Source: Minisyncoccota bacterium
GTDB lineage: Bacteria > Patescibacteriota > Minisyncoccia > Phycocordibacterales > UBA9973
NCBI GenBank assembly: GCA_041663005.1
Contig: JBAZRK010000002.1
Span: 64,740-128,739 of the forward strand
Length of the DNA: 64,000 nucleotides
Reading direction: 5' to 3'
The translations under genes and the position numbers were made by a program. The notes under the pieces are model-generated. The model worked only from the letters and a program-made list of their open reading frames with translations, made no database searches and was not told the origin of the DNA. Shown here in pieces: positions 1,119-45,976 of the stretch (the first letter of the stretch is position 1; each line of letters opens with the position of its first letter).

Positions 1119-3833
1119 CTAATTTTCCTGGTATGTCGGCTTTTTCTTTATTTCTTGGCAAGGAACTGACGTCCCACCATTCGAGCCCGGACAAGTCCAG
1201 GTCCATTTGTCTGTCTCGTCTGCCCTGATCGTAGCGCTATCTCCTGCCCAGGTACAGAGATAATGTTTTTTGTAACACTGTCCGTTAACTTTTGGCGCAG
1301 GATCGCCACCATTACCACCGCCACAATTATTTGTGACCGTGCATTCACGCTGGAGTCCTTCGGCGTCAAGCTCGGCACAAGGAGGATTGTTGCAGACTCG
1401 TTCCTGTACTCCAACCCCACAAACTGTGTTGGTGCAAGGTCCCCATTCCCAGTCCCCAAGTTGCGGATTTACAGTTCCCTCAGCGCATTTACTACCGTCC
1501 CACTGTGTTCCTCCGACACAATTGGAATATACAGTATTTTGGGTAACCGGCGGCTCCCCATTGTTGTAGAGATAAAATGTTCGATAGTTGTAAGGCACGG
1601 TCACGGACTTAGTACCTGATTGGGAGCTTGGGGTGAGGCTGTTGCTGACAGTAATGTCAGTCATACCAGTGGCAGTGATTTTAGTAGGTATAGCTTGAGG
1701 GTTGGTGATACTCCAAGCAAGATTTACGTTACAACTATTGCCATCTTTTGCAATCGTGCAAGAAGTTGGTGAAGGGGTTAAGGTTCCCGACATAGGATTT
1801 ACCGTTGGCGTGCACTTTGCGCCGTCCCAAACGGTACCACTAACGCAAGTCGCTGGAATGTTGACGCCCGAGCCACTAGGTGAAGTAGGTACAAGAGACT
1901 TAGCATTGTTGTATAGGTAAAATGTTCGAGAGCTGTAAGGTACGGTCACAGACTGAGTACCTGATTGCGAGCTTGGGGTGAGGCTGTTGCTGACGGTAAT
2001 ATCCGGCGTCATACCTGATGCCGTAATCTTGGTTGGGGTAGCTTCGGGGCTGTTGATAGTCCAAGAAAGGTTCGTGGTGCAACTATTTGCATTAACGGCA
2101 ATCTCACACCCTGCCCCAGAAAGTGTTCCATACATCCCAGCCACAGGAGCACATTTAGTATTGTCCCAGGTCGTGCCTGAAACACAAGATGCGGTAGCAG
2201 AGTTACTGCCTAGGACTTTATTGTTGTTATATAAATAAAATATTCGAGAGCTGTAAGGCACGGTCACGGACTTAGTACCTGATTGCGAGCTTGGGGTGAG
2301 GCTGTTGCTGACAGTAATGTCAGTCATACCAGTGGCAGTGATTTTGGTAGGGGTAGCTTCGGGGTTAGTAATGCTCCAGGAAAGGTTAGATGTACAGCTG
2401 CTGCCACCAGAGGCGATGGTGCAGTTTGGCACACTGATTGTCCCTGACATAACCGCGGCACATTTAGTACCATCCCACTCGGTATTCGTATCACAGTAAG
2501 CTTTGGCTGTATCTTGATCAAGAAGGGTTCCGTCATTGTAAAGATAAAATGTTCTCTCGCCGTTGGGTGAGCCACCCTCTACACCATATATTGCGGAACT
2601 GTTGTTGCCCGTACCCACAGTAACATTCGTCGGAGTCGTAACAGCAGAGGTGCCAACAGGATTGGTCGTGGTCCAGTTTAGAGAACTAGTGCAAGTATCA
2701 GCATTGAGGGCAATGGTACAGTCTGTGGCAGTAAGGTTGCCCGACATAGGAGATGGCGGAGGTGGTGGAGGTGGCGATGATGTCTTGTCGATGGCACAGT
2801 TAGCAGTAGTGCCTCCATTAGTGCTTTCGCAATCCCACTTATACTGGGTAGTACTGTCTGCGGTATCCTTAAAGTTTCCCACGTTACAAGTGTTGAGGAC
2901 AAGCGGGTCAGAACACTGACCAGGGGGAGTTACTGCAGGAGCCTTTTGCTCTGAACAAGAAACACTTGTCCCCGCATTACTGCAAGTCCAAGTATACGCC
3001 GCAAGTCCGCTCACATTGTTCGAGCTAACCGCGCTCGCCGGAGAACAGTCGTAGTGGGTGGTAGAACAACTAGGAGGAACTGGAATAGCATTAAATTTAA
3101 AGGTAAAGGCGCAATCTTTCGAAACAGCTCCTGTATTATAGACCGTACTATTCGGAAAAGTAGCACTAGTAGGAGAAAATACACCAGCCGTAGCACAATC
3201 TGAAGGATCCCAAGAAACAAGCGAGGAGGTGGAGTAGCCTGAGGTCGGAGTAACTGTTATCTGAGAAGTGCTTCCGCTTTCAACTTTACTTGGCGAAGGA
3301 GTGCTGACTGATCCCCCCGCATTCGCACTCGCGGTAACGTTGTAAGTAATAGGCGCAGCAGCTATTGTAAGTGTACTAGAAGACCTGATTGCTGTTTTAT
3401 CCAGATTGTCTGTCACTTCAACCTTTACTATGTAGTCTTCAGCTGGAATATTCGAAAAAGTCCTACTGCTCCCTGTAAAATCAGTGCCCAAAGCTGCCGA
3501 CCAACAATCTCCCACAGGTCTAGTATTAGTCTGGTATGTTAATGGAATTGTTTGCCCAACCATTGACGCTGGTCCTGCAGTTATTGTGGCCGTTGCTGAC
3601 ATAGCTGCTATTGTTGGATCAGAATAGGTACCTCCTCCTTCACCGCTCTGTGAGCAAGTTGTCCCAGCTTCAACCGACAGTTGCCCACTAGGAATACTTA
3701 CAGTAATACTATCTCCGCTTACGCTGGCGCTTAAGGTAAACACAAGCGACTTGGCTCCGCCAATTGCACTCGCTTTATAAAAAGGAATAATAACTACTAA
3801 TAATAAGGGAAGGAAAACTAGTAATTTTTTCAT
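1119..3833 (-). CDS. Large secreted, cell-surface repeat protein of 904 aa. It has a signal peptide, four roughly 105-aa Cys-containing tandem repeats, a poly-Pro linker and a Cys-rich C-terminal region
   Basis: N-terminus is MKKLLVFLPLLLVVIIPFYKASA. A repeated unit GMTDITVSNSLTPSSQSGTKSVTVPYSSR.FYLYNN occurs four times, with visible nucleotide-level repeats of about 320 nt. There is a PPPPPPPSP linker. The C-terminus contains W.W..C...CG.G...R.C, a thrombospondin-type-1-like motif. Confidence 0.75.
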   Translation of the reverse strand: MKKLLVFLPLLLVVIIPFYKASAIGGAKSLVFTLSASVSGDSITVSIPSGQLSVEAGTTCSQSGEGGGTYSDPTIAAMSATATITAGPASMVGQTIPLTYQTNTRPVGDCWSAALGTDFTGSSRTFSNIPAEDYIVKVEVTDNLDKTAIRSSSTLTIAAAPITYNVTASANAGGSVSTPSPSKVESGSTSQITVTPTSGYSTSSLVSWDPSDCATAGVFSPTSATFPNSTVYNTGAVSKDCAFTFKFNAIPVPPSCSTTHYDCSPASAVSSNNVSGLAAYTWTCSNAGTSVSCSEQKAPAVTPPGQCSDPLVLNTCNVGNFKDTADSTTQYKWDCESTNGGTTANCAIDKTSSPPPPPPPSPMSGNLTATDCTIALNADTCTSSLNWTTTNPVGTSAVTTPTNVTVGTGNNSSAIYGVEGGSPNGERTFYLYNDGTLLDQDTAKAYCDTNTEWDGTKCAAVMSGTISVPNCTIASGGSSCTSNLSWSITNPEATPTKITATGMTDITVSNSLTPSSQSGTKSVTVPYSSRIFYLYNNNKVLGSNSATASCVSGTTWDNTKCAPVAGMYGTLSGAGCEIAVNANSCTTNLSWTINSPEATPTKITASGMTPDITVSNSLTPSSQSGTQSVTVPYSSRTFYLYNNAKSLVPTSPSGSGVNIPATCVSGTVWDGAKCTPTVNPMSGTLTPSPTSCTIAKDGNSCNVNLAWSITNPQAIPTKITATGMTDITVSNSLTPSSQSGTKSVTVPYNYRTFYLYNNGEPPVTQNTVYSNCVGGTQWDGSKCAEGTVNPQLGDWEWGPCTNTVCGVGVQERVCNNPPCAELDAEGLQRECTVTNNCGGGNGGDPAPKVNGQCYKKHYLCTWAGDSATIRADETDKWTWTCPGSNGGTSVPCQEIKKKPTYQEN

Positions 3834-3970
3834 AGGTTTAATTATACTATATAACCCCCTGCCACTATAAGTATCTCCCCTGTGGATATCTTGCCAAGTT
3901 TACGATGCTGTGATAAGCTTCTATTGTATGAGTCCTGTCCGAAACAGGGCTTTTTTTAATAAAAATTAAA

Positions 3971-4013
3971 CCCCGACGTAAAAAGTCGGAGTCCCGACCT
4001 CAAAGCGTCGGGA
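3971..4013. repeat. Copy A of a roughly 45-nt double-hairpin palindromic repeat (intergenic, upstream of nusA)
   Basis: ccccgacg-taaaaa-gtcggagtcccgacc-tcaaa-gcgtcggga. It shares its architecture with copies at 14453, 24231 and 36464. Confidence 0.65.
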
Positions 4014-9565: not shown

Positions 9566-9596
9566 TCCCTAGGGGCTTCCCTAGTGATTTATTGCG

Positions 9597-10317
9597 CCCC
9601 GAGGGTTCCCCTCGGGGGTTTGTGCTATAATGGAGTTATGGAAAGAAAAGCAAAATTTGAACTGGGAGAATTTTACCACGTTTATAATCGCGGTGTAGAG
9701 AAAAGGGTTATATTTAAGGGCAATCGCGACTATGATAGATTTCTGGTTTTACTGTACATTGCGAATAGCAACGAGGCCTTGCACATAAACGACTATGGGC
9801 CACTCCGTTCAATCAAGGATATTTTCCAAAAAGATCGCGGTAAACCTTTGGTGGCGATAGGAGCATATTGTCTAATGCCCAACCATTTTCATCTGCTACT
9901 TACTCCCCTGGTAGAAAATGGCATATCTAAGTTCATGCTCAAGCTTCAAACAGGCTACTCAATGTATTTTAATAAAAAGAATGATCGTGTGGGCGCTCTC
10001 TTTCAAGGAGTTTTTAAATCCCAACACATAGATAACGACAGATTTTTAAGATATATTTACGCTTATTTACATTTAAATCAGGCTAAGTTGAAAAATTCAG
10101 AATGGAAAAAACAACCTAAAAAATTTTTAAAAGAGTTAAAGAAATTCATTTCTGAGTACCCCTACTCAAGTTTACAAGAATATATATCTGGCGATTATAA
10201 AATCATAAATCCCAAACCTTTTCCGGTAAGTAGAAAATATATCCGTGATTATCGAAGTATGGTAGACGACTTTAGCGAAGAACCGCTTTCTCCCCGAGGG
10301 GAACCCTCGGGGGCTAA
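9597..10317 (+). mobile_element. IS200/IS605-like or REP-associated (RayT-like) unit. A Y1-transposase gene is bracketed by near-identical REP-like hairpins
   Basis: Hairpin ccccgagggttcccctcggggg at 9597-9619, and its inverted copy ccccgaggggaaccctcggggg at 10296-10317 inside the C-terminal coding end. A TGcTATAAT promoter and GGAG lie before the ATG at 9638. Confidence 0.5.
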
Positions 10318-10324
10318 GAATTAA
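9638..10324 (+). CDS. Y1 (HUH) tyrosine transposase, IS200-like/RayT-like
   Basis: Motifs YHVYNRG, CLMPNHFHLLL (HuH) and YIYAYLHLNQ (catalytic Tyr region), matching the Transposase_17 pattern. The track start 9584 is a GTG lying inside the hairpin, so the ATG at 9638 is preferred. Confidence 0.75.
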   Translation: MERKAKFELGEFYHVYNRGVEKRVIFKGNRDYDRFLVLLYIANSNEALHINDYGPLRSIKDIFQKDRGKPLVAIGAYCLMPNHFHLLLTPLVENGISKFMLKLQTGYSMYFNKKNDRVGALFQGVFKSQHIDNDRFLRYIYAYLHLNQAKLKNSEWKKQPKKFLKELKKFISEYPYSSLQEYISGDYKIINPKPFPVSRKYIRDYRSMVDDFSEEPLSPRGEPSGAKN

Positions 10325-11247: not shown

Positions 11248-14200
11248 TTATAAATATTCCTTATAAGATTTTATTTCCAAGTCTTCGACTTTATAACGGG
11301 CTAGCGCTTTAATAAAAGCTCTAGCGAGGTGCAGGTCGGTAAAGAGAGGCACTTGGTTGTCCACCGTTGCGCGACGAATATGGAAACCGTCAGTGAGCAT
11401 TCGGCCGGATTCTCCTTTGGCATCCGGATCGGCAACTTCCCTCTTGCTTAAATTTACCACAAAAGAAACTTTCTTGCCTTCAATGATACTTAGAGCGTTC
11501 GGCATTCCTTCAGACGCTTTACGTACCATCTGACATTGAATCTTCTGCTTGTCGAGGAATTCAGCAGTAGTGTCGGTTGCAAAAATATTGTAGCCTAGGT
11601 CGCGGAGGAGCCCTGCCGCTTCTAAGAATTTAGCCTTATTGACTTCTCCGCCGAGCGACAGAAGCACATTTTTATTTTTGAAGTCAAACTTATTGGTACT
11701 CATAATGGATTTTATGAGCGCTTCGTCATAGTCCTTGCCGAAACACGCCGCTTCTCCAGTAGAAGCCATCTCAACCCGAAGTACTGGGTCCGCCCCCAAG
11801 AGCCTAGCGAAGGAAAATTGCGGAGATTTGACTACCACGCTTTTTGGATACTCCACTCTTTGAGGCTTGGCAATTCCTAAGAAACTTTCAACCGAAACTT
11901 CCGGCAAATTAATATCCATTGCTTTAGAGAGTAGTGGAAACGTTCGGCTCGCGCGCGCATTCACTTCTATCACATATGGTCTATTGTCTTTAACTAAAAA
12001 TTGTATATTGAAGGGCCCTGTAATATTTAACCCTTTAGCTATTTTCTTAGAAATTTCGCGAATTTGAAATTCAGTAGAAGCATAAACTCGCTGGGTTGGG
12101 TACACAATCGTAGCATCTCCAGAGTGCACTCCTGCGTTCTCGACGTGTTCCGAAATAGCGTATACCATCACCTCTCCTTTCTGCGCCACAGCGTCAAATT
12201 CGAGCTCCTTGGCGTTCTCGACATATTTGGAGATTGTCACCGGGTGCTCCGGGGAAAGAACTGCCGCGTTGTTGATAAAATCATGCATCTGTCTTTTGGA
12301 ATAACACACTCGCATCGCCGCACCAGAAAGTACATAGGACGGACGCACTAAGACTGGAAAGCCCTCGATCTCTGCGAATTTTTCGGCATCTAGCTTGGAT
12401 ACGAAACTCTGCCATTTCGGTTGGAGTATCCCGAGTTTATCTAGAAGCGCCGAGAAGGCGTTCCTGTCTTCGGCTCGGTCAATGTCTTCAGCTTTCGTTC
12501 CTAAAATGTGAAAGCCGGTACCGGAAAGCTTTTTTGCCAGGTTGTTCGGGCGCTGTCCGCCGACAGAAATGATTGTGCCTTCGGGTTTTTCAAACATACA
12601 TATGTCGGCAACTGTTTCGAAAGACAAGTTTTCGAAATACAGACGGTTAGACATATCGTAATCCGTTGAAACTGTTTCTGGGTTGCAGTTGATGATGATG
12701 GATTTCTTGCCATATTTGCCAAGCGCCAGCGCCGTGTAAACCGAGGACCAGTCGAACTCCACTGAAGACCCGATGTGATACGGACCGGAACCTAGAACGA
12801 TAATCGCGTTCTTGCCCAAAGGCGCTACGTCGTGATGCGCACCGTGATAAGTCAGGTATAGGTAATTCGTTTTCGCGGGAACTTCTCCGGCTAAAGTATC
12901 GATAGCGAAAACAAACGGAGTCACTCCTAACTTTATACGAATCTTGCGAATTTCGAGTTCTTTTTTACCGCAAAGTTTCGCTATTTTCTTGTCAGAAAAT
13001 CCATTTTGCTTTAAGGCTAACAAGTTTTCTCGGTTTAATATTTTTGTTTTAAGAAACTTTTTTTCAACGTTGATGATATTTTGGATACGATACAAAAACC
13101 AAGGATCAATACCAGTAATTTTATAAATTTGTTCCACAGTTTTTCCGGTTTTGAGTGCCTCCGCAACGGCAAAGACTCGACGTGGAGTCGGCGTTTCAAG
13201 GAATTTATCTGCCTCGGCCTTATTTTGAAAACCATTATCGGTCACACTTTCTTCTGCTCCGCGCGCCATCCTGACAGCTTTCTCGAAAGCTTCTTCGAAG
13301 GTTCGCCCGATGGCCATTACTTCTCCGACAGATTTCATCGCGCTACCTATTCGCTCCGCTGCGCCTACGAATTTCGACAAATCCCATCGCGGCATTTTCA
13401 CTACGATGTAGTCGAGGGCCGGCTCGAAAAAGCTCTGGGTAACTTTCGTAATTTTATTTTCCACTCCTAGTAAACTATGTCCCAACGCCAATTTCGCCGC
13501 TACGTAGGCTAGAGGATACCCTGTGGCCTTCGATGCCAGGGCGCTTGAGCGTGAGAGGCGGGCGTTAACTTCAATCACGTAGTAATCCGGGTCGTCGGAC
13601 TTGGGGTTCGGGTTTAAGGCATATTGCACATTGCATTCCCCTACAATTTTTAAACTCTCTACTATTTTAATGCTGGCTTCGCGAAGACGATGATATTCTT
13701 CGTTGTTGAGGGTCTGACTCGGCGCCACAACGATGGAGTCCCCGGTGTGAATACCAAGCGGATCGAGGTTCTCCATATTGCAAACGGTGACAATGTTGCC
13801 GAAGCTATCGCGCACAACTTCATACTCAACTTCTTTAAAGTGGTGGAGATATTTTTCAATCAATACTTGCGGAGACACCGCCAGCGCGCCCTTAACTATT
13901 TCTTCAAGCTCAGTGTTGTTATAAGCGACGCCGGATTTCTGTCCCCCGAGGGCGAAAGCTGCACGCACCATTAACGGGAAGCCGATTCTATCTGCAATCT
14001 CTTTCGCTTGAGTAAAGTTAACAGCCGCCCCGGAGGCCGGTACTGGAATATTGATACCTTTCAAATGGTGAGCAAATTTTTCGCGGTCTTCGGTAAGTTC
14101 AATCGAGGAAATAGGGCTACCTAAAATTTCTGCATTGTATTTTTTGAAAACTCCCTTGTGCGAAAGCGCTACCCCGCAGTTAAGCGCTGTCTGTCCGCCA

Positions 14201-14526
14201 AAAGAAAGCATTATGCCGTCGGGGCGTTCCTTTTTAATGACTTGCTCCACGAAAAAAGGCTCCACCGGCAAGAAATAAACTTCGTCGGCAAAATCTTTCG
14301 AGGTTTGATAAGTGGCGATATTCGGGTTTATCAAAACCACTTTAATCTTTTCTTCTTTCAGGGCTTTAATGGCCTGACTACCGGAATAATCAAATTCCCC
14401 TGCCTCGCCGATTTTGAGCGCCCCCGACCCTAGTATGAGAACTTTTTTAAAAGCCGACGCTTTCGGTCGGCTCCCCGACCTTTGGGAGCGTCGGGGTTTA
14501 TTAGGTTTTTTATTTTCTTTTTGCAT
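11248..14526 (-). CDS. carB: Carbamoyl-phosphate synthase large subunit
   Basis: Duplicated ATP-grasp halves, GEFDYSGSQA near the N-terminus and an MGS-like C-terminus. 1092 aa. The N-terminal extension is encoded by palindromic repeat copy B. Confidence 0.95.
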   Translation of the reverse strand: MQKENKKPNKPRRSQRSGSRPKASAFKKVLILGSGALKIGEAGEFDYSGSQAIKALKEEKIKVVLINPNIATYQTSKDFADEVYFLPVEPFFVEQVIKKERPDGIMLSFGGQTALNCGVALSHKGVFKKYNAEILGSPISSIELTEDREKFAHHLKGINIPVPASGAAVNFTQAKEIADRIGFPLMVRAAFALGGQKSGVAYNNTELEEIVKGALAVSPQVLIEKYLHHFKEVEYEVVRDSFGNIVTVCNMENLDPLGIHTGDSIVVAPSQTLNNEEYHRLREASIKIVESLKIVGECNVQYALNPNPKSDDPDYYVIEVNARLSRSSALASKATGYPLAYVAAKLALGHSLLGVENKITKVTQSFFEPALDYIVVKMPRWDLSKFVGAAERIGSAMKSVGEVMAIGRTFEEAFEKAVRMARGAEESVTDNGFQNKAEADKFLETPTPRRVFAVAEALKTGKTVEQIYKITGIDPWFLYRIQNIINVEKKFLKTKILNRENLLALKQNGFSDKKIAKLCGKKELEIRKIRIKLGVTPFVFAIDTLAGEVPAKTNYLYLTYHGAHHDVAPLGKNAIIVLGSGPYHIGSSVEFDWSSVYTALALGKYGKKSIIINCNPETVSTDYDMSNRLYFENLSFETVADICMFEKPEGTIISVGGQRPNNLAKKLSGTGFHILGTKAEDIDRAEDRNAFSALLDKLGILQPKWQSFVSKLDAEKFAEIEGFPVLVRPSYVLSGAAMRVCYSKRQMHDFINNAAVLSPEHPVTISKYVENAKELEFDAVAQKGEVMVYAISEHVENAGVHSGDATIVYPTQRVYASTEFQIREISKKIAKGLNITGPFNIQFLVKDNRPYVIEVNARASRTFPLLSKAMDINLPEVSVESFLGIAKPQRVEYPKSVVVKSPQFSFARLLGADPVLRVEMASTGEAACFGKDYDEALIKSIMSTNKFDFKNKNVLLSLGGEVNKAKFLEAAGLLRDLGYNIFATDTTAEFLDKQKIQCQMVRKASEGMPNALSIIEGKKVSFVVNLSKREVADPDAKGESGRMLTDGFHIRRATVDNQVPLFTDLHLARAFIKALARYKVEDLEIKSYKEYL
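14453..14496. repeat. Copy B of the double-hairpin palindromic repeat (inside the carB 5' end/N-terminal extension, overlapping the carA-carB junction)
   Basis: gccgacgc-tttc-ggtcggctccccgacc-tttgg-gagcgtcgggg. Confidence 0.6.
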
Positions 14527-23695: not shown

Positions 23696-24790
23696 ATGTT
23701 TTACAAGCACAACGATACTTATACCGTAGAGAGCGTTACTTCTGGGCACCCGGACAAAATCTGTGACCAGGTCTCGGACGCTATTTTAGATGCCTATTTA
23801 ACCGTAGATTCTAAGGCTCGCGTCGCTGTTGAGACCTTCGGCGGCCACGGCAAGCTCACCATCGGCGGCGAAATCACGTCCACTGGCAAGGTTGACTACG
23901 TGCAGATTGCACGGGACGTTTACAAGAAAATAGGATACGAAGATAACCTAGAAATCTCTGCCCACCTGGTAACACAATCCCCTGACATTGCGATGGGTGT
24001 CGACAGTGGCGGCGCCGGTGACCAAGGCATAATGTACGGCTTTGCCACTGATGAAACTCCGGAATTTTTGCCAAAGGGCGTTGTCCTCGTGCACAAACTT
24101 GCAAAACGTTTAGAAGAAGCGCGAAAATCTGGAGAAATTAAATGGCTACGCCCAGACGGCAAGACTCAAGCAACATATGCAGACGGGAAATTGCATACAG
24201 TATTAGTAAGCACTCAGCATGCCTTAGAAACCCCGACGCCAGAAGGGGTCGGGGTCCCGACCACAAGCGTCGGGATTAAAAAAGAAATCACCGAGAAAGT
24301 TATTTATCCGTTACTTTCTGAAACAGAAAAACAAACTGTGAAAATACTTGTAAACCCCACAGGTCAATTTATCCAAGGCGGATTCGAAGCCGACACAGGA
24401 TTAACGGGTAGAAAAATAATGGTAGACACTTACGGCGGAATAATTCCCCACGGCGGCGGATGTTTCTCAGGAAAGGACGCCACGAAGGTTGACCGCTCTG
24501 GCGCGTATATGGCGCGATTCGTAGCCAAGAACTTGGTTGCTAATGGCTACGGCAAGGACGTTCTCGTCTCCGTAGCGTACGCAATTGGTATGGCAGAGCC
24601 TTTGATGGTTGAAGCCATTAATGAAAAGGGCGAGGACCTTTCAGAAATTGTAAAAAGGAATTTCGATTTCCGCCCGCAGGCCATAATAGAGCGCCTAGGT
24701 TTACGCGCTCCAATTTTCAGCCAGACTGCCGCCTACGGCCACTTCGGTAAAGTTGATTTGCCTTGGGAAAAAATAGAAAAAATTGTGTAA
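23696..24790 (+). CDS. metK: S-adenosylmethionine synthetase
   Basis: GHPDKICDQVSDAILD and GGGAFSGKD-type motifs. Contains an in-frame roughly 15-aa insertion encoded by repeat copy C. Confidence 0.95.
   Translation: MFYKHNDTYTVESVTSGHPDKICDQVSDAILDAYLTVDSKARVAVETFGGHGKLTIGGEITSTGKVDYVQIARDVYKKIGYEDNLEISAHLVTQSPDIAMGVDSGGAGDQGIMYGFATDETPEFLPKGVVLVHKLAKRLEEARKSGEIKWLRPDGKTQATYADGKLHTVLVSTQHALETPTPEGVGVPTTSVGIKKEITEKVIYPLLSETEKQTVKILVNPTGQFIQGGFEADTGLTGRKIMVDTYGGIIPHGGGCFSGKDATKVDRSGAYMARFVAKNLVANGYGKDVLVSVAYAIGMAEPLMVEAINEKGEDLSEIVKRNFDFRPQAIIERLGLRAPIFSQTAAYGHFGKVDLPWEKIEKIV
24231..24275. repeat. Copy C of the double-hairpin palindromic repeat, inside metK and read in frame
   Basis: ccccgacgc-cagaag-gggtcggggtcccgacc-acaa-gcgtcggga encodes TPTPEGVGVPTTSVG between conserved MetK blocks. 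Confidence 0.65.
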
Positions 24791-32796: not shown

Positions 32797-33523
32797 TTAC
32801 TTTTTACCCTTCTTCTGAGCTTTTACATACTTTAGATACTTGTCGGAAAAAACTGCCACGTGGTAATGCGGAGGATGATGTTCGCGGGTGGCTTCGAGAA
32901 ATCCCGCTTTCTCCATTAGTAAAAGATTCCGCTCTAAGTACTGCCTACTCTTAGCACTTTCTGGAACCTTAAGATCGAGCGCCATACCTGTGGGATGCAC
33001 CGAATTCGGAGAAGCATTTTTGGGTTGCTTGTCGAGTGTACGCAGTAAACTTGTCACCACTAACTTCTCGCCACAAGCATTTAGAAATTGCCTGGAAAAT
33101 CTCTGCAACCAAAGCTTCGTGGCTGGCCGTGCATATGGGAAACTTACCTCCCCGTCTAAAATAAAACTTTCTGCATTTGAAAGGTGCACAAGATAACCCG
33201 CTTTCACATACCGACTGACCATGTATGAGTCGCGCATTTTGTCGAATTTATTGCGCACTGCCTCTTTTACCATTCTTCTGATGGAAGCTCTAGATCCTTT
33301 CAAGCTTGGTTCTCGTGTTTTCGCTTCCGCGTCTTCAGGTAAAATTAAACTCTCTATTGATGCTACCGAGGCCCCCGCTAAACCTGCCCCCATTTTATGT
33401 AAAAATTCTCGACGAGAAATTTCAATATTTTCTTCAAGGTTTGGCTCTTCGGGTGGGGTCGCAGGTGGGACCTTAGGTGCTTTGTTGTTATTGCCAAAAG
33501 GATTTTCTATCATTATTTGATTA
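32797..33523 (-). CDS. Tat-signal peptidase M15A/DUF882 (YcbK/MepK-like murein peptidase)
   Basis: Twin-arginine motif SRREFLHKMGAGLAGAS. DUF882-like block NASPNSVHPTGMALDL. A strong Shine-Dalgarno (GAGGAGG) lies before the ATG at 33523. Confidence 0.55.
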
Positions 33524-33540
33524 TAGTCCTCCTCACAAAT

Positions 33541-33600
33541 AAAAAGAAGAGGCCTCGCAAGAAGTCGTTCTGGGCGAGGCCTTGAACCTCGCGGTTCATT
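33541..33600 (-). promoter_or_regulatory. Leader with mutually exclusive hairpins. A terminator (aggcctcgc...gcgaggcct followed by ttcttttt) competes with an upstream stem (gcgagg...cctcgc), giving a candidate attenuator
   Basis: Seen by folding the minus-strand sequence by eye. It sits between the STAS gene stop and the peptidase Shine-Dalgarno. A further GC palindrome ccgggcggcgtacgccgcccgg lies at 33645-33666. Confidence 0.35.
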
Positions 33601-33671
33601 GATTCTGATTGATTTTTGTTTTAAAGAACAGTGGTCTCCGTTGCCGGGCGGCGTACGCCGCCCGGCAGAGA

Positions 33672-34025
33672 TCACAACGCTCGACAGCTCAACACAGCTT
33701 CGTGTTCATTATCGAACGTATGGAAAACTGAATTAAGCCCGGTCTTTTGAAACAGGTCCACTAAGTTGTGGGGTACGCGAAGGAATCGCAAATCACGTCC
33801 TTTGTGGGTAAGCGTGGTGTAGCAATTAACCAGCATTCCCACACCAGCAGGATCGACCACAAGAATTCCCCCAAAATCAAGAATTATGTGGTGGTTCCGC
33901 TGACCAAACACCATCTGCCCGAGGGTACTTATCGCGTCATTGCTCAGAATGATTTTCCCCTCCATGTGGAAAATAATCACGTTGTGGGTTTCGAGATACC
34001 TCTCGTCTGTTGTGATTTTAAACAT
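33672..34025 (-). CDS. STAS-domain anti-sigma-factor antagonist (SpoIIAA-like)
   Basis: MFKITTDE...ILDFGG....D.AG...L pattern of anti-anti-sigma factors. The track's TTG start at 34055 lies inside a hairpin, so the ATG at 34025 is preferred. Confidence 0.6.
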   Translation of the reverse strand: MFKITTDERYLETHNVIIFHMEGKIILSNDAISTLGQMVFGQRNHHIILDFGGILVVDPAGVGMLVNCYTTLTHKGRDLRFLRVPHNLVDLFQKTGLNSVFHTFDNEHEAVLSCRAL

Positions 34026-34213
34026 TTCCCCTCCCCGTAAGAACGTTAGGGGCAATAAATAAAAGAGCGCCCGCTCTCTTGTTTATTGCCCTGTTTTTGT
34101 GTCTGTGCCCATACTATATTAAAAAACAAAAAAAATAAACTTTTACTAGTGTCGCGAAACCCCGCACTAGAGCAAGCTCAGTACGGGGCAAGTATTTATG
34201 CTAAAATGTCTTT

Positions 34214-35149: not shown

Positions 35150-35967
35150 TGAAAATAATAAGCTGGAACGTCAACGGAATACGGGCAGTGCACAAGAAAG
35201 GACTTTTTGTACCTTTTGTGAAAAAATACCAACCTGATATTTTATGCCTGCAGGAAACCAAGGCTGAACAACACCAGAGCCAAGTTGACCTCGACGAATA
35301 TGAAGAATATTGGCATTCTGCGGAACGGAAGGGCTACAGCGGTACAGCAATTTTCACCCGGATAGAGGTTAAACCTCTATCTGTGGTTTTTGGTTTGCCG
35401 AAAAGTATCGAAAAAAAATATAATTTGAAAGATAAATATGGTGACCCGAACACCGAGGGCAGAATAATTTGCGCAGAATTTAAAGATTTCTTTGTAGTGA
35501 CTGTTTACACCCCAAACGCTAAGGATGACCTCTCTCGCCTCCCCCTCCGCCACAAGCATTGGGATCCAGCATTTCTGGAATATATGAAAAGTTTAGAAAA
35601 TCCTTCGGCAAGCTCAGGACGTACCGGAAAACCAGTAATTTTTTGCGGAGATTTAAATGTGGCCCACACGCCGGACGACCTCGCTCGTCCGAAAGAAAAT
35701 GTCGGCAACAAAGGCTTCACTGACGAAGAGCGTGAAGGAATTCAAAATATAATTGATGCAGGCTTCGTAGACACTTTCCGAATATTCACTAAAGGCAACG
35801 GGCACTACTCCTGGTGGAGCCACTTTGCCAACGCTCGCGCACGGAACGTCGGCTGGCGCATCGACTATATTTTCGTCTCACAAAAATTAGCAAAGAAGGT
35901 TAAAAAGGCTGAAATTTTACCTGAAGTCCTAGGCTCAGATCATTGCCCCGTCTCTATAGAGCTATAA
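35149..35967 (+). CDS. xth: Exodeoxyribonuclease III (AP endonuclease)
   Basis: MKIISWNVNGIRA, CLQETK, GDLNVAH, SDHCPV motifs. Confidence 0.9.
   Translation: MKIISWNVNGIRAVHKKGLFVPFVKKYQPDILCLQETKAEQHQSQVDLDEYEEYWHSAERKGYSGTAIFTRIEVKPLSVVFGLPKSIEKKYNLKDKYGDPNTEGRIICAEFKDFFVVTVYTPNAKDDLSRLPLRHKHWDPAFLEYMKSLENPSASSGRTGKPVIFCGDLNVAHTPDDLARPKENVGNKGFTDEEREGIQNIIDAGFVDTFRIFTKGNGHYSWWSHFANARARNVGWRIDYIFVSQKLAKKVKKAEILPEVLGSDHCPVSIEL
35361..35381. repeat. 21-nt perfect palindrome GATAGAGGTTAAACCTCTATC inside xth. An identical copy is at 43195-43219
   Basis: Exact 23-nt identity between the two loci, seen directly. Confidence 0.6.
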
Positions 35968-36808
35968 GCTTTGGTTTTACATTCCCGAACCATTTCCGGG
36001 TTAGCGCATCTATGGTCTGAGTTTCGTCGGTGATTAAAATTTTTGCGGTTTTGCCACGAGAAAGCTTTTTTGATATCTCTTCGTGCCTTGTGAGATAATT
36101 TTTTAGTTTTATCGGAACAATTTCATCTTGAGAAATTATTTTCACTTTAGTTCCAACTATTTTCTTTATCTCCTTCTTGTATATAGGATAATGGGTACAA
36201 CCCAAGACTAGCGCATCAATCTTTTTGCCCACAAAGGGCTGTAAATATTTTTTTATAAACGGCAGCGCGCTCGCTTTCTCCCCCGCTTCCGCTAGTGGCA
36301 CGAGCATCGGTGCCGAATTCTGGAATACTTTTGTTTTTTTATTTAACTTTTGAATTTCTTCTGGGAAAGCCCTCGACGCTACCGTGCCCGCCGTCCCAAG
36401 CACACCAACATTTTTAAACTTCGCGGCTTCTTCTGCCGCCGGAATTAAAACTCCAAGAACTTTCCCCGACGCTTTCGGTCGGGGTCCCGACCCCTTACGG
36501 CGTCGGGATTGATTTTTAAAATATTTCTGGAGGGGCTTCAGTGCCCGAGCAGAGGAAGTATTGCAGGCAATTATAACTATCGCGCAATTTTCTTTCTGGA
36601 AAAGATGGTTCACCGCTTCCTTGGTGAATTCGAACACCGCTTGGTGCGAGCGATTACCATAGGGCACCCTCTTGGTATCCCCTAAATACACATAGTCATA
36701 TTGAGGCATTGCTCTCCGTATTGCCTTCGCCACAATAAGCCCGCCCAACCCTGAATCAAAAATTCCTATTTTCTTCCCGTTAGAAATTTTATTATTTTTT
36801 CTTAGCAT
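35954..36808 (-). CDS. murI: Glutamate racemase
   Basis: GIFDSGLGGL, CNT, GCTHYP motifs. Contains an in-frame roughly 16-aa insertion (SRRRKGSGPRPKAS) encoded by repeat copy D. Confidence 0.9.
   Translation of the reverse strand: MLRKNNKISNGKKIGIFDSGLGGLIVAKAIRRAMPQYDYVYLGDTKRVPYGNRSHQAVFEFTKEAVNHLFQKENCAIVIIACNTSSARALKPLQKYFKNQSRRRKGSGPRPKASGKVLGVLIPAAEEAAKFKNVGVLGTAGTVASRAFPEEIQKLNKKTKVFQNSAPMLVPLAEAGEKASALPFIKKYLQPFVGKKIDALVLGCTHYPIYKKEIKKIVGTKVKIISQDEIVPIKLKNYLTRHEEISKKLSRGKTAKILITDETQTIDALTRKWFGNVKPKLIAL
36464..36508. repeat. Copy D of the double-hairpin palindromic repeat, inside murI and read in frame
   Basis: ccccgacgc-tttc-ggtcggggtcccgacc-cctta-cggcgtcggga. Confidence 0.65.
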
Positions 36809-37833: not shown

Positions 37834-39573
37834 ATGAAAAAGATCTGCCAAAACTGTGAAGCAGGTTTTGAAATAGATTCTGAAGATCTGAAATTTTACG
37901 CGCGAATTAGTGTCCCGCCTCCGACTTTCTGCCCACAGTGCCGGTTGGCTCGCAAGCTTATCTGGCGCAACGAGCGCTCGCTCTATAAAAGAAAGTGTGA
38001 CTTGTGTAAGAATGACGTCATCTCGATGTACAAAGCGGATGCCCCCTTCCCCGTCTACTGCCACGACTGCTGGTGGAGCGATGAGTGGAGCCCGCTAGAA
38101 TACGGGCAAGACTACGATTTCAATCTTCCTTTTTTTGAACAATTTAAGAGCTTACTCGAGAAAGTCCCACGCGCAGCTTCGTATGTCACCAAAAATTTGC
38201 AAAACGAGTATGTAAACTACACCACCCACACCAAAAATAGTTACTTGTTGTTCGGTAGCTGGTTTAATGAAAATTGTGGATACGGACAAACAGTTATGGA
38301 GAGCAAGGAATGCTGGGATTGTCTTTTTATGAGGAAGGGCGAACTTTGTTTTTCCTCAATGGATTGTCAGCAGTGTAGTAATCTGCTTTTTAGCCGAAAT
38401 TGCCAGGGCTGTATCGACTCCGCATTTTTATATGACTGCAGAAATTGCCAAAACTGTCTTTTCAGCTGGAACTTGCGAAATAAAAATTATCATGTCTTCA
38501 ATCAACCTGTTTCTAAAGAAGAATTTGCCCGCCTCAAGGAAGAGATGCTCAATTCGGCAGAAGCCTTAGAAAAAAACTGGGCAAATTTCAAAAAAGCTGT
38601 GCAGGAAGAAGCCATTCATAAATATATGACAGGCGAGCATAATCACAATGTCTCGGGTGAATTTATTTCGAACTGCAAAAACGTTCACTCTTCTTTCTTT
38701 ATAGATAAAGGCGAAAATGAAAAGTACGCTGTGCGCGGTGGAGTAGGACAAAAAGATTCAATGGACGTATTCGGAGTACACGCGGGAGAGCTCGCTTATG
38801 AATGCAACAATATCGACTTCTCTTCACGTTGCTTCTTCGGCCTAAATGGGGAAAACAATCTGGATTCTAGATACATCATAGATTGCGACAGCCTAAATAA
38901 TTCTTTTGGTTGTGTTTCACTCCGAAAAAATGAGTATTGTCTGCTAAATAAACAATACAGTAAGGAAGAGTATGAAAAAATTTTACCCCAAGTCGTGGAA
39001 CATATGAAAAATATGCCGTATGTTGATAAAAATAATAAAACTTACGGATATGGTGAATTTTTCCCCGCAGATCTTTGTCCTCACGCTTACAACGAAAGCA
39101 TCGCCCAAGAATGGATACCTCTTTCTGGGGACAAAGCTGTAACACTCGGCTATGGCTGGGATGATTCCCAAGACAAAAATTACGTCCCTACAAAAAGTTG
39201 GAAAGATCTTCCTGGAACCTTGGCGGAAACAAGCGATTCTATAACACAAGAAATTATTTTGTGTCAGGCGTGGGATGAAGACAAGGTAGCTGCCCAAAAT
39301 CACAAGTGCACCAAAGCTTTCAGAATCATCCAAGATGAACTTATTATGTATAAAAAGTGGGGGTTGCCTTTGCCTAGAAAATGCCCCAATACTAGAAATT
39401 TTGAAATGTTGCAGCTTCGCAACAAGCCTAATTTTTTCCATCGTGTATGCATGTGTGAGAATACGAATCACGAACATAGTGGCAAATGCCCGAATGAATT
39501 CGAAACCAGCTACGCTCCGGACCGCAAAGAATTAGTTTATTGTGAAAGTTGCTATAATAAAGAGGTCTACTAA
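37834..39573 (+). CDS. Cysteine-rich protein of 579 aa with zinc-ribbon-like N- and C-terminal modules and internally duplicated Cys-repeat core (paralog 1)
   Basis: C..C...F......L.FY....VP.P.FCP.CR...R...RNER.LYKR.CDLC...PFPVYC..CWW.D.W motif at N-terminus, with a related module at C-terminus. The middle has C..C repeats every 13-15 residues, and NxQYSKEEYEK occurs twice. Confidence 0.7.
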   Translation: MKKICQNCEAGFEIDSEDLKFYARISVPPPTFCPQCRLARKLIWRNERSLYKRKCDLCKNDVISMYKADAPFPVYCHDCWWSDEWSPLEYGQDYDFNLPFFEQFKSLLEKVPRAASYVTKNLQNEYVNYTTHTKNSYLLFGSWFNENCGYGQTVMESKECWDCLFMRKGELCFSSMDCQQCSNLLFSRNCQGCIDSAFLYDCRNCQNCLFSWNLRNKNYHVFNQPVSKEEFARLKEEMLNSAEALEKNWANFKKAVQEEAIHKYMTGEHNHNVSGEFISNCKNVHSSFFIDKGENEKYAVRGGVGQKDSMDVFGVHAGELAYECNNIDFSSRCFFGLNGENNLDSRYIIDCDSLNNSFGCVSLRKNEYCLLNKQYSKEEYEKILPQVVEHMKNMPYVDKNNKTYGYGEFFPADLCPHAYNESIAQEWIPLSGDKAVTLGYGWDDSQDKNYVPTKSWKDLPGTLAETSDSITQEIILCQAWDEDKVAAQNHKCTKAFRIIQDELIMYKKWGLPLPRKCPNTRNFEMLQLRNKPNFFHRVCMCENTNHEHSGKCPNEFETSYAPDRKELVYCESCYNKEVY

Positions 39574-39574
39574 C

Positions 39575-41254
39575 ATGGAAAAGCCCTGTCAAAGCTGCAA
39601 GAAAGAATTTGGGGTTCGCAAAGAGGACCTCGTTTTCTACGAGCAGATAAAGGTTCCGCCGCCCAATTTCTGCCCCGATTGCCGGATGATGCGGCGGCTC
39701 GCATTCCGAAACGAGCGAACTCTATATAAACGCCCTTGCGACTTGTGCAAGCAAGACGGCGTCTCACTCTACCCTGCCGGCACGCCCTTCCCTGTCTATT
39801 GTCAGAAATGCTGGTGGGGAGACGGCTGGGATCCAACAGCTTACGCTATGGACTGGGACAAGTCGCGTCCTTTTTACGACCAATTCCGAGAACTAAAAAA
39901 TAAAATCCCGCGCATCGGCCTTTTGGTTATCGACTGCGTCAACTGCGATTACACTAACAATACAGGTGAGTGTAAAAATTGCTACCTGATTTTTGCGGCG
40001 GAAACGAATGAGGACTGTATGTACGGTAGATTGATACAGCGCTGTAAAAATTCTATGGATTGCGCCTTCCTGTATGATTCCGAGCTTTGCTACGAGTGCG
40101 TAGACACCAGAAAATCATTCAAATGTATGTATAGTGAGCGTTTGCTGGAGTGCGTGGATGTAATGTTCTCTTTCGATATGCGCAATTCGCAAAACTGCAT
40201 CTTCTGCGTAAACGGACGTAACTTAAATTATTGTATTGAGAACGTACAGTATAGTAAGGAAGAATATGAAAAGAAGAAAGCTGAAATTTTATCCTCTTAC
40301 GAGTCCATCGAGGAGGCTAAGAGAAAATATAACGATTTGCGGTCAAAAGCTTTAGTAAAATACGCGGTCGCTACGAAGTGCAACGACGCCACCGGTGACT
40401 ATATGTACAATTGCCACGAAGGCGTAAACATCTTCGACGCATCCAATACCAAAAACTCTTCCTATGTTGCGGACGCAGAAGACGCGCTCGACTGCCAAGA
40501 TTGCAACAACTTATATTTCAAACCAGAACGCCTCTACAACATAATGGGCACACTTCAGAGTACCAACTGCATCGCGGGGGTATACATTATGTATGGCAAT
40601 GAAGTGCATTACTCCGACAGTTGCTACAACTGTGTTAGCTGTTTTGGGTGCGTTGGTTTGAATAAAAAGAATTATCACATCCTGAACAAAGAATATTCCA
40701 AGGAAGAATACCAGAAAATTAAATCCGAAATCGTGGAACAATTAAAAAAAGACGGCCTGTACGGTGACTTCTTTCCTCCGGAACTCTCCCCTTTCGGATA
40801 CAATGAAAGCTTGGCTCAAGAATATTATCCATTGTCGGAAAAAGAAGCCGGAGAAAGAGGATTTAACTGGCAAAAGCAAACTTCCGGCACTTATGGCAAA
40901 GAAACCTTAAAAGAAAACGAAATCCCCGCCACTTTAGGCGAAGCCACAGAAGATATTTTAAACCAAATACTTGTCTGCAAGGATTGCAAAAAGAATTTCC
41001 GTATCACTCGCGGTGAATTGGATTTCTACAAGCGCATGAATCTCCCCCTACCGCACAAAGATTTCGAATGTCGACATCAAGACCGAATGAAAAAGAGAAA
41101 TCCTCGCCAACTCTGGCCACGTAGCTGTATGTGTACGCTCAAAAACCATCAACATAAAGACAAAAACTGCGAAAATATTTTTGAAACAAGCTACTCCCCC
41201 AACCGCCCCGAGACAGTCTATTGCGAACCTTGCTACCAACAAGAAGTTTCTTAG
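39575..41254 (+). CDS. Cysteine-rich protein (paralog 2), tandem duplicate of the upstream gene
   Basis: Same architecture, about 40 percent identical by eye. AAGAGG Shine-Dalgarno lies before the ATG at 39575, directly after the paralog 1 stop. Confidence 0.7.
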   Translation: MEKPCQSCKKEFGVRKEDLVFYEQIKVPPPNFCPDCRMMRRLAFRNERTLYKRPCDLCKQDGVSLYPAGTPFPVYCQKCWWGDGWDPTAYAMDWDKSRPFYDQFRELKNKIPRIGLLVIDCVNCDYTNNTGECKNCYLIFAAETNEDCMYGRLIQRCKNSMDCAFLYDSELCYECVDTRKSFKCMYSERLLECVDVMFSFDMRNSQNCIFCVNGRNLNYCIENVQYSKEEYEKKKAEILSSYESIEEAKRKYNDLRSKALVKYAVATKCNDATGDYMYNCHEGVNIFDASNTKNSSYVADAEDALDCQDCNNLYFKPERLYNIMGTLQSTNCIAGVYIMYGNEVHYSDSCYNCVSCFGCVGLNKKNYHILNKEYSKEEYQKIKSEIVEQLKKDGLYGDFFPPELSPFGYNESLAQEYYPLSEKEAGERGFNWQKQTSGTYGKETLKENEIPATLGEATEDILNQILVCKDCKKNFRITRGELDFYKRMNLPLPHKDFECRHQDRMKKRNPRQLWPRSCMCTLKNHQHKDKNCENIFETSYSPNRPETVYCEPCYQQEVS

Positions 41255-45733: not shown

Positions 45734-45789
45734 TATATTCAAATAGCTATAAGTGTAAACGGGCTTGCCCGACAAAGCTTTAGCATCGG

Positions 45790-45860
45790 CGGGCCGTAGT
45801 ATACCGGTAGTACAAGCGCTTTGGGAGCGTTTAGACTGGGTTCGATTCCCAGCGGCCCGA
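45790..45860 (+). tRNA. tRNA-Pro (anticodon TGG)
   Basis: Acceptor cgggccg/cggcccg, anticodon loop ttTGGga, T-arm ctgggttcgattcccag. Confidence 0.7.
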
Positions 45861-45905
45861 CAAGTTGAGGTTTTTGCGGGCTTGCCCGCCGAAGCCTTGG
45901 CGCAG

Positions 45906-45976
45906 GCGGGATTAGTTTAATGGTAAAATAACAGTTTTCCAAACTGTGGTTAGGAGTTCGATTCTCCTATCCCGCA
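45906..45976 (+). tRNA. tRNA-Gly (anticodon TCC)
   Basis: Acceptor gcgggat/atcccgc, anticodon stem acagt/actgt with loop ttTCCaa, T-loop ttcgatt. Confidence 0.65.

Follow-up and report, generated by a model that had tools for sequence, protein, structure and literature searches.

How does an otherwise intact glutamate racemase come to carry an extra segment of basic residues that its nearest relatives lack? The question is raised by murI in a 64,000-nucleotide (nt) stretch of DNA from a Minisyncoccota bacterium (assembly GCA_041663005.1, contig JBAZRK010000002.1, positions 64,740 to 128,739 of the forward strand), which is called the window below and whose own numbering is used. The segment very probably stems from a 45-nt element of two hairpins, here called the CCGAC element after its core motif: a non-autonomous GC-rich palindrome, similar to repetitive extragenic palindromes (REPs) and their doublets (REPINs) or to Rickettsia palindromic elements (RPEs), that was inserted in murI and is translated as a tolerated surface loop.

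The murI gene occupies 35954..36808 on the minus strand and encodes 284 amino acids (aa) that match Pfam family PF01177 (E 7e-13) and MurI structures in the PDB (down to E 5e-42). Apart from the extra segment the protein is intact: its fold is that of the Asp/Glu racemases, both catalytic cysteine motifs (ACNT and GCTHYP) are in place, C82 and C204 do not vary across alignment A1 (44 MurI sequences), and all invariant catalytic columns are kept. It is 100% identical to a protein from a Candidatus Paceibacterota metagenome-assembled genome, and the exact 284-aa sequence was found on at least five contigs, including the independent Logan assembly SRR18595301 and a 307-kb contig. The element copy within it (copy D; 36464..36508, minus strand) is a 45-nt core with 71% GC and two abutting hairpins with 7-bp stems, which on the plus strand reads CCCCGACGCTTTCGGTCGGGG (36464-36484) followed directly by TCCCGACCCCTTACGGCGTCGGGA (36485-36508). 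In the murI frame, on the minus strand, the region reads KYFK-N-Q-SRRRKGSGPRPKASG-KVLGV. According to the original prediction, an extra segment of about 16 aa was exactly this copy. The core indeed encodes S101-G115, but Q100 comes from an additional CAA, and the net insertion relative to empty orthologous sites is 48 nt (36464..36511, minus strand; core plus CAA). Between helix 3 and strand 4, MurI has thereby gained 16 residues, Q100-G115 (QSRRRKGSGPRPKASG). The whole region from K98 to K116 reads K98-N-Q-S-R-R-R-K-G-S-G-P-R-P-K-A-S-G-K116, with the peptide GSGPRPK inside the insert and ASGK-VLGVLIPAAEEAAK at the junction.

Alignments with the solved MurI structures 2gzm, 1zuw and 1b73 show a gap of 14-16 residues exactly at the insert point, between the post-ACNT helix and the strand VLGV. 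An AlphaFold2 model built with A1 has a mean predicted local distance difference test score (pLDDT) of 90.3 and resembles MurI crystal structures with template modelling (TM) scores of 0.82-0.90 in Foldseek. In the model, helix 83-103 continues into the insert, residues 104-115 are coil, and strand 116-119 follows; the mean pLDDT is 60 over block 101-110 and the values for residues 109-111 are <50. The racemase fold is thus predicted to be intact, with the insert as a low-confidence coil that probably forms a flexible surface loop. Judging from known MurI structures, the insert point presumably lies on the surface, near the crossover of the N- and C-terminal domains.

The site is empty in orthologues. 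The nearest MurI relatives (72-75% identity) read LQKEF-KNKKILGV or LQKFF-KGKVLGV without the insert (A1), and the insert peptide is present in none of the 119 other MurI sequences retrieved (120 in all). The DNA of three relatives, L120, L122 and L123, was compared codon by codon. The gene order TrmB-murI-exoIII-xerC is kept in L120 and L123, which have long flanks, while L122 is a 1.4-kb contig with murI and one adjoining gene. The window reads TTT AAA AAT CAA, the 45-nt core, then AAA GTT; L122 reads TTT AAA GGT AAA GTT and L123 reads TTT AAA AAT AAA AAG, and the site is empty at the DNA level in all three. The CAA codon of Q100 possibly arose by mutation from a copy of the neighbouring AAA. 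In other MurI proteins of Paceibacterota, GC-rich palindromes of different kinds occupy the insert loop as well as others (for example CCTCCCCCTAC-GTAGGGGGAGG and GCCCGCCGAAGCTTTAGCGAAGGCGGG), and the MurI loop is therefore one that has repeatedly tolerated insertion. The in-frame insertion of a palindromic element that had been proposed for murI is borne out by the gaps against PDB structures and by the empty orthologous sites in protein and DNA. The check proposed with it, an alignment with orthologues and structures, found the insert absent from the nearest orthologues and gapped in the structures, and no repeat-free orthologue with the same insert was found among the 120 MurI sequences.

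The element is repeated in the window. An outer-arm pattern search gave three matches against 0.10 expected, a number reached by 0 of 100 shuffles, and motif and fuzzy searches of the 64 kb gave exactly four copies (A-D), the fourth of which has one change in an outer arm. Copy B lies in carB (11248-14526) at 14452..14496 on the minus strand, where it is an exact 45-nt in-frame insertion after codon 10 that encodes PRRSQRSGSRPKASA. Window CarB accordingly starts MQKENKKPNK-PRRSQRSGSRPKASA-FKKVLILGSG, with the insert in the N-terminal tail, and residue 2 of Escherichia coli CarB aligns with its residue 21. None of the best 120 CarB relatives has the insert; these start M-x(3-12)-KK[IV]L[IV]LGSG. 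The carB gene reads AAA, the 45-nt core and TTT, with no target-site duplication, and no ATG, GTG or TTG follows downstream of the element. Since no alternative start is available there, the element must be translated if CarB is made.

Copy C lies in metK (23696-24790) at 24231..24275 on the plus strand, in the same orientation to the coding strand as copy D but in frame +1. Because it is one base out of register, its peptide, (T)PTPEGVGVPTTSVG, is unrelated to that of MurI, while its DNA is identical to the murI copy at 37 of 45 positions. The net change in MetK is +10 aa (+30 nt), with five ancestral codons lost; most relatives have 354 aa and read STQHSADVSQEQ-IKKE (alignment A2). The segment LETPTPEGVGV(P/T)TTSVG is common to window MetK and that of Nomurabacteria RIFOXYD2_FULL_35_12 (A2). 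Between these two genomes the element is identical at 43 of 45 positions, whereas metK overall is 73.6% identical. The metK insert thus occurs in an independent genome, and it was found on six contigs.

Copy A, of 43 nt, is intergenic and untranslated. It lies at 3971..4013, with a terminator-like hairpin just upstream and the nusA start 15 nt downstream of it, and it is kept at the same position in a related genome (L003), where 42 of 43 positions are identical while the flanks carry indels. A near-identical variant with the same loops and the same C.A mismatch was seen in L119 (2672-2715), upstream of an unrelated small open reading frame (ORF) and about 20 nt before its start codon. The terminator-like hairpin (GTCCTGTCCGAAACAGGGCTTTTTTT), at 3933-3957 between a promoter-like region and nusA, is followed by a U-run and is likewise conserved in L003; it possibly serves as an attenuator in the nusA leader. 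Copy A stands between this hairpin and the nusA ATG.

Copy D is identical at 33-37 of 45 positions to the copies in carB, metK and the intergenic site. Copies B and D share orientation and frame and are identical at 33 of 45 positions (alignment A3). The original prediction had attributed a related carB peptide to the same element in the same relative frame and had proposed checking that the likeness derives from nucleotide identity; both points are confirmed by these alignments. The intergenic copy and the out-of-register metK copy place the similarity at the level of DNA and not of protein. Insertion of a common DNA element, as opposed to conservation of a protein segment, is further upheld by the empty sites and by the CarB relatives without the insert. 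The nearest orthologues of murI, carB and metK mostly lack the element, and the reading frame is kept in all three genes. Both the observation and the interpretation of the original prediction are confirmed.

The distribution of the element was surveyed in one genome per species (GTDB, the Genome Taxonomy Database) with the pattern CCGAC-N4-14-GTCGG-NNN-CCCGAC-N4-14-GTCGGG, which gave at least 119 stretches; all counts from this survey, here and below, are among the matches listed. Of the 119, 93 (~78%) are labelled as Patescibacteria, in many classes that include Saccharibacteria and Nomura-, Kaiser-, Doudna-, Berkel-, Wolfe-, Yanofsky-, Taylor-, Adler-, Vogel- and Gottesmanbacteria. Eight stretches come from unlabelled metagenome-assembled genomes and 18 from other groups; some GC-rich genomes among these 18 are probably chance matches. 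The 18 also include a coherent double-hairpin variant of Chitinophagaceae/Bacteroidota (ATGCCGAC..GTCGGCAT-CCCGAC..GTCGGGAC; L032, L060, L075 and L105), so that the double-hairpin family or its mechanism is not strictly confined to Patescibacteria. A phage vector was considered and rejected, as only three matches were found in 2.9 million viral contigs. Clustering of 813 ORFs from the 119 loci gave no recurrent neighbour gene, only housekeeping families.

Each copy consists of two abutting hairpins. The 7-bp stems are NNCCGAC/GTCGGNN in hairpin 1 and NCCCGAC/GTCGGGN in hairpin 2, and the loops are variable, with 5-10 nt, and often like GNRA or UUCG tetraloops. The free stem-closing positions covary among 128 elements. 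Watson-Crick pairs are formed in 91.4% between the second base 5' of the first CCGAC and the second after the first GTCGG (CG, TA, AT and GC; shuffle mean 39%), in 87.5% between the first base 5' of the first CCGAC and the first after the first GTCGG (CG, TA and GC; shuffle mean 38%), and in 92.2% between the base 5' of CCCGAC and the base after GTCGGG (CG, TA and AT; shuffle mean 45%); these values were reached by 0 of 10000 shuffles. The outer arms CCGACG/CGTCGG pair in 89% of copies. Mispairs at the loop edges are also conserved, as G.G or G.A in hairpin 1 and as C.C or T.C in hairpin 2. Since these mispairs are mirrored, hairpin 2 is essentially the reverse complement of hairpin 1, and the element is an inverted dimer with a spacer of 0 nt. 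The RNA folds of the window copies reach -28 to -32 kcal/mol with z-scores of -3.9 to -5.4 (-4.1 to -5.4 for copy D), and the hairpin symmetry of copy D is perfect. A single long nested hairpin was rejected as the main fold, its pairs outside the fixed core being Watson-Crick in only 33-39%. A DNA-uptake sequence was rejected as well: CCCGAC occurs nine times in the window outside the four elements, about the composition estimate, and only the full double hairpin is repeated. Rfam gave no family at the gathering threshold, and none at E<1 around copy A. In L022, L052, L093, L115 and L118, a complete CCGAC hairpin lies within the loop of another element hairpin; such nested forms suggest hairpin-into-loop insertion or duplication.

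Copies lie inside ORFs in 54 of 129 cases (~42%), as do three of the four in the window, and host genes elsewhere encode histidyl-tRNA synthetase, peptidyl-tRNA hydrolase (Pth) and the C-terminus of ribosomal protein L3. In open frames of at least 200 codons, the core length is divisible by 3 in 32 of 44 copies (binomial p 1e-7), against 15 of 59 copies outside ORFs (Fisher p 3e-6), and copies inside genes are stop-free in the host frame. This length filter on genic copies is indirect evidence of translation. Intergenic copies stand between co-directional (34), divergent (13) and convergent (10) genes, and many lie 8-30 nt from start codons. A function as intrinsic terminator was rejected on these mixed contexts and on the lack of a U-run after the hairpins.

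The reading as an inserted and tolerated palindromic element is directly supported by the insertion relative to orthologues, the DNA homology of the copies, the covariation of the hairpins, the length filter and the intact predicted fold. One copy would have entered murI in an A-rich stretch whose codons specify the link from the post-ACNT helix 3 to strand 4, and the 48-nt stop-free insertion would leave the gene open. It would be translated into 16 residues, basic and rich in Gly, Ser and Pro, as a flexible loop on the surface that leaves the racemase fold and catalytic residues untouched; the peptide is likely to be actually made and near-neutral. The same family would also have entered carB, metK and the nusA 5' region. 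The family may have spread through a Y1/HUH transposase that acts in trans and recognises single-stranded hairpins; such a route would fit both the carB insertion without target-site duplication and a gene found in the window.

That gene, between tig and pyrB at 9638..10324 on the plus strand (unit 9584-10324), encodes a Y1 (HUH) tyrosine transposase that resembles REP-associated tyrosine transposases (RAYTs). It scores 29.9 bits against Pfam Y1_Tnp (PF01797; cutoff 23), and its sole NCBIfam match is to REP_Tyr_transpos (REP-associated tyrosine transposase), at 34.5 bits and thus under the cutoff of 80. The protein has an HFH motif and a candidate catalytic tyrosine in RYIYAYLHLN. A tblastn search with an IS200 TnpA query gave no match, a negative result that carries no information, since the search missed this gene, which was later found by Pfam. 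The gene is flanked by a 21-nt palindrome upstream (9597..9617; CCCCGAGGGTTCCCCTCGGGG) and by an inverted copy of it downstream, in the last codons of the ORF (10292..10312; CCCCGAGGGGAACCCTCGGGG); the layout, CCCCGAGGG-TTC/GAA-CCCTCGGGG, is REPtron-like. Loop-edge mispairs have been reported to matter for the cleavage of REPs by RAYTs (PMC3733652). Given the conserved mispairs and the lack of a target duplication in carB, hairpin-directed mobilisation of the CCGAC element by a Y1-type enzyme, for which the RAYT-like gene is a candidate, is plausible. More than 520 homologues of the transposase were found in metagenomes. Their flanking hairpins were examined at 68 homologous loci of the best 80 retrieved, and a link to the element by this route was rejected, the flanks being of a different palindrome type.

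Several observations weigh against the insertion reading or against the role it gives to the transposase. The palindrome CCCCGAGGG...CCCTCGGGG beside the gene shares only the basal six pairs (CCCCGA/TCGGGG) with the CCGAC element, many transposase homologues are flanked by lineage-specific (C/G)GAGG...CCTC(G/C) palindromes and not by the CCGAC type, and a homologue occurs at 1 of the 119 element loci, which is the chance level. The footprints are uneven (+45 nt in carB, +48 in murI, +30 net in metK). The 43 of 45 identical positions of the metK copies, in genes 73.6% identical, hint at constraint on the element and not at pure neutrality. Orthologous copies, in metK and upstream of nusA, seem to evolve more slowly than their host genes, so that a role in function or in long-term persistence keeps some plausibility.

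We put forward a broader proposal tentatively, as possible but rather doubtful. The CCGAC double hairpin would be an ancient, Patescibacteria-wide and vertically persisting replicator, or a structural module recruited by the host, kept hairpin-competent by selection even in essential genes and possibly partnered with the widespread RAYT-like Y1 family that is present in the window; at least three further families of palindromes would share with it the role of a general driver of innovation at the loops and termini of Patescibacteria proteins.

Alternatively, the double hairpin could be a functional nucleic-acid module, retained by selection even within genes, with the peptide as a by-product. 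It would then be either an RNA structure that influences how stable an mRNA is or how it is processed or translated, or a DNA site to which a conserved protein of Patescibacteria binds. The core motif and compensatory stem changes are indeed kept across many Patescibacteria classes, but covariation is equally expected if only hairpin-competent copies propagate. The identity of the metK copies above that of their host gene and that of the nusA-upstream copies amid flanks with indels, the many intergenic copies close to start codons and the GNRA- or UUCG-like loops would also suit a module. Nevertheless, the position relative to genes is inconsistent (34 co-directional, 13 divergent and 10 convergent contexts), the element occurs in unrelated genes at unrelated positions, the nearest orthologues of murI, carB and metK manage without it, no Rfam family matches, and one stem pair of the P0122 metK copy is already broken. 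We consider such a module unlikely.

Excision of the hairpin segment from the RNA, in an intron-like manner or by hairpin-directed processing and ligation, would yield MurI without the extra residues. The structure is very stable, and Patescibacteria are known for insertions in rRNA genes. Genic copies are enriched for lengths divisible by 3 and are stop-free, neither of which would be needed by an excised segment; no intron family of Rfam matches, and to our knowledge no bacterial mRNA splicing system for 45-nt hairpins has been described. Excision at the RNA level is accordingly highly improbable. An origin of the loop at the protein level, as an adaptive, lineage-specific feature of MurI whose likeness to the other copies is convergent or coincidental, could draw on the varying loop length among Paceibacterota MurI and on the strongly basic insert, which might matter for interactions. 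Such an origin is effectively refuted by the intergenic and frame-shifted copies: copy D is identical at 33-37 of 45 nt to those in carB, metK and the intergenic site, one of which is read in another frame. In addition, selection on protein would not produce its perfect hairpin symmetry, and none of the 119 further MurI sequences retrieved has the insert. We give such an origin hardly any credence. Lastly, although the source is a metagenome-assembled genome and short GC-rich repeats can confuse assemblers, a repeat misjoined into murI during assembly or binning has a negligible probability, since the exact MurI is found on at least five contigs from different assemblies, the metK insert recurs in an independent genome and on six contigs, and the reading frame is kept in all three genes.

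Further palindromes and ORFs were noticed. At least three further families of GC-rich palindromes have supplied in-frame inserts to other MurI and MetK proteins of Paceibacterota, several of these inserts at the same MurI loop; the MurI homologues concerned include L129 (10001-10867) and L130 (5938-6807; alignments A1 and A2), and the peptides include PLPNLPLRRGRSKEGV, SGTSPYGRGRKG, LGHSPTGEA, ARRSFSEGG, PARNASHSDAGGE and LPAGRQG. A palindrome of the type GCCCGCC-GAAGC(C/T)TT(A/G)GCG-GGCGGG has two copies in the window (45768-45793 and 45885-45910), directly 5' of two tRNA genes (45790-45860 and 45906-45976) and overlapping their first bases; this family is also found in frame in the MurI of L130 (ARRSFSEGG). 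At 33640-33667, where a STAS-domain ORF (33672-34055) and a DUF5715 ORF (32797-33675) overlap by stop and start in GTGA, there is a perfect 26-nt GC palindrome, TGCCGGGCGGC-GTAC-GCCGCCCGGCA. A 904-aa ORF on the minus strand (1119-3833) has no Pfam match and contains three tandem repeats of ~345 nt with 84-91% identity among them (1559-2423). Two neighbouring Cys-rich ORFs of ~575 aa (37834-39573 and 39542-41254), also with no Pfam match, have repeated segments in common, resemble tandem paralogues, and are conserved beside TrmB in L120 and L123.

In-frame palindromes that code for protein were at first described as peculiar to Rickettsia, and scattered cases among REP dimers followed; they are now found in Patescibacteria (the Candidate Phyla Radiation), a huge group with reduced genomes that depends on host cells. 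Here a single 45-nt family has the same core across many classes, and ~40% of the sampled copies are genic, including those in the essential genes murI, carB, metK, hisS, pth and rplC. Odd Gly/Pro/Arg/Ser-rich segments and N- or C-terminal extensions in proteins of Patescibacteria are thus repeat-derived, which bears on annotation; such segments should be masked in alignments and phylogenies, and in structure prediction they show as low-confidence loops. The family offers a second, independent system for asking why symbionts with small genomes tolerate selfish DNA within proteins, with the RAYT-like Y1 transposase as a concrete candidate for the enzyme that mobilises such elements.

In its behaviour, the element is closest to RPEs (Ogata et al. 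2000 Science 290:347; Ogata et al. 2002 Genome Res 12:808, PMC186582; review PMC10969869). As in that system, palindromic repeats with no transposase of their own lie in non-coding DNA and also in frame in several unrelated housekeeping genes of a reduced-genome, host-dependent bacterium, and the peptides, absent from orthologues, occupy fold-compatible positions at a loop or terminus. RPE-1-type elements have ~100-150 bp and are known from Rickettsia only, whereas the CCGAC element is a zero-spacer double hairpin of 43-45 nt in many Patescibacteria classes. By its host taxon, Candidatus Paceibacterota, the element is not an RPE, but it appears to work like one, the likeness being one of behaviour.

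REPs, also described as bacterial interspersed mosaic elements (BIMEs) and REPINs, and their RAYT transposases form the second comparison (Bertels & Rainey 2011, PMC3116915; Di Nocera et al. 2013, PMC3733652). Common features are short GC-rich imperfect palindromes arranged as inverted dimers with maintained hairpins, conserved loop-edge mispairs (in this element, hairpin 1 has G.G and hairpin 2 C.C), insertion in carB without target-site duplication, and, in the same window, a RAYT-like Y1 transposase flanked by inverted palindromes. Opitutus terrae, R. conorii and Thauera are reported to have REP dimers within genes, where they encode 20-30 residues (PMC3733652). Two defining REP features are nevertheless missing, the terminal GTAG tag and the extragenic location: GTAG or CTAC is terminal at only 10 of 254 flanks, CGTC is present inside the element, at the stem/loop junction and not at the terminus, and the 42% of intragenic copies set it apart from classical extragenic REPs. 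Moreover, the dimer spacer is 0 nt, and the palindromes beside the RAYT-like gene differ from the dispersed element.

[quoted passage not shown] MITEs have terminal inverted repeats that match a parent insertion sequence and produce target-site duplications, while the carB insertion is the bare 45-nt core. No such duplication is present in carB, and the 3 extra nt in murI (CAA against AAA) are ambiguous; no parent insertion sequence was seen for the CCGAC element. Fungal mitochondria harbor GC clusters and double-hairpin elements (for example in Allomyces), which are also small, GC-rich, two-hairpin mobile elements of AT-rich genomes and can sit in frame, but these are organellar and eukaryotic and have unrelated sequences. 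The literature searched, which lacked many papers from subscription journals, contained no account of such elements in Patescibacteria or the Candidate Phyla Radiation. Set beside these systems, the CCGAC double hairpin is a new family of a kind of element that was already known, in a host group new for that kind.

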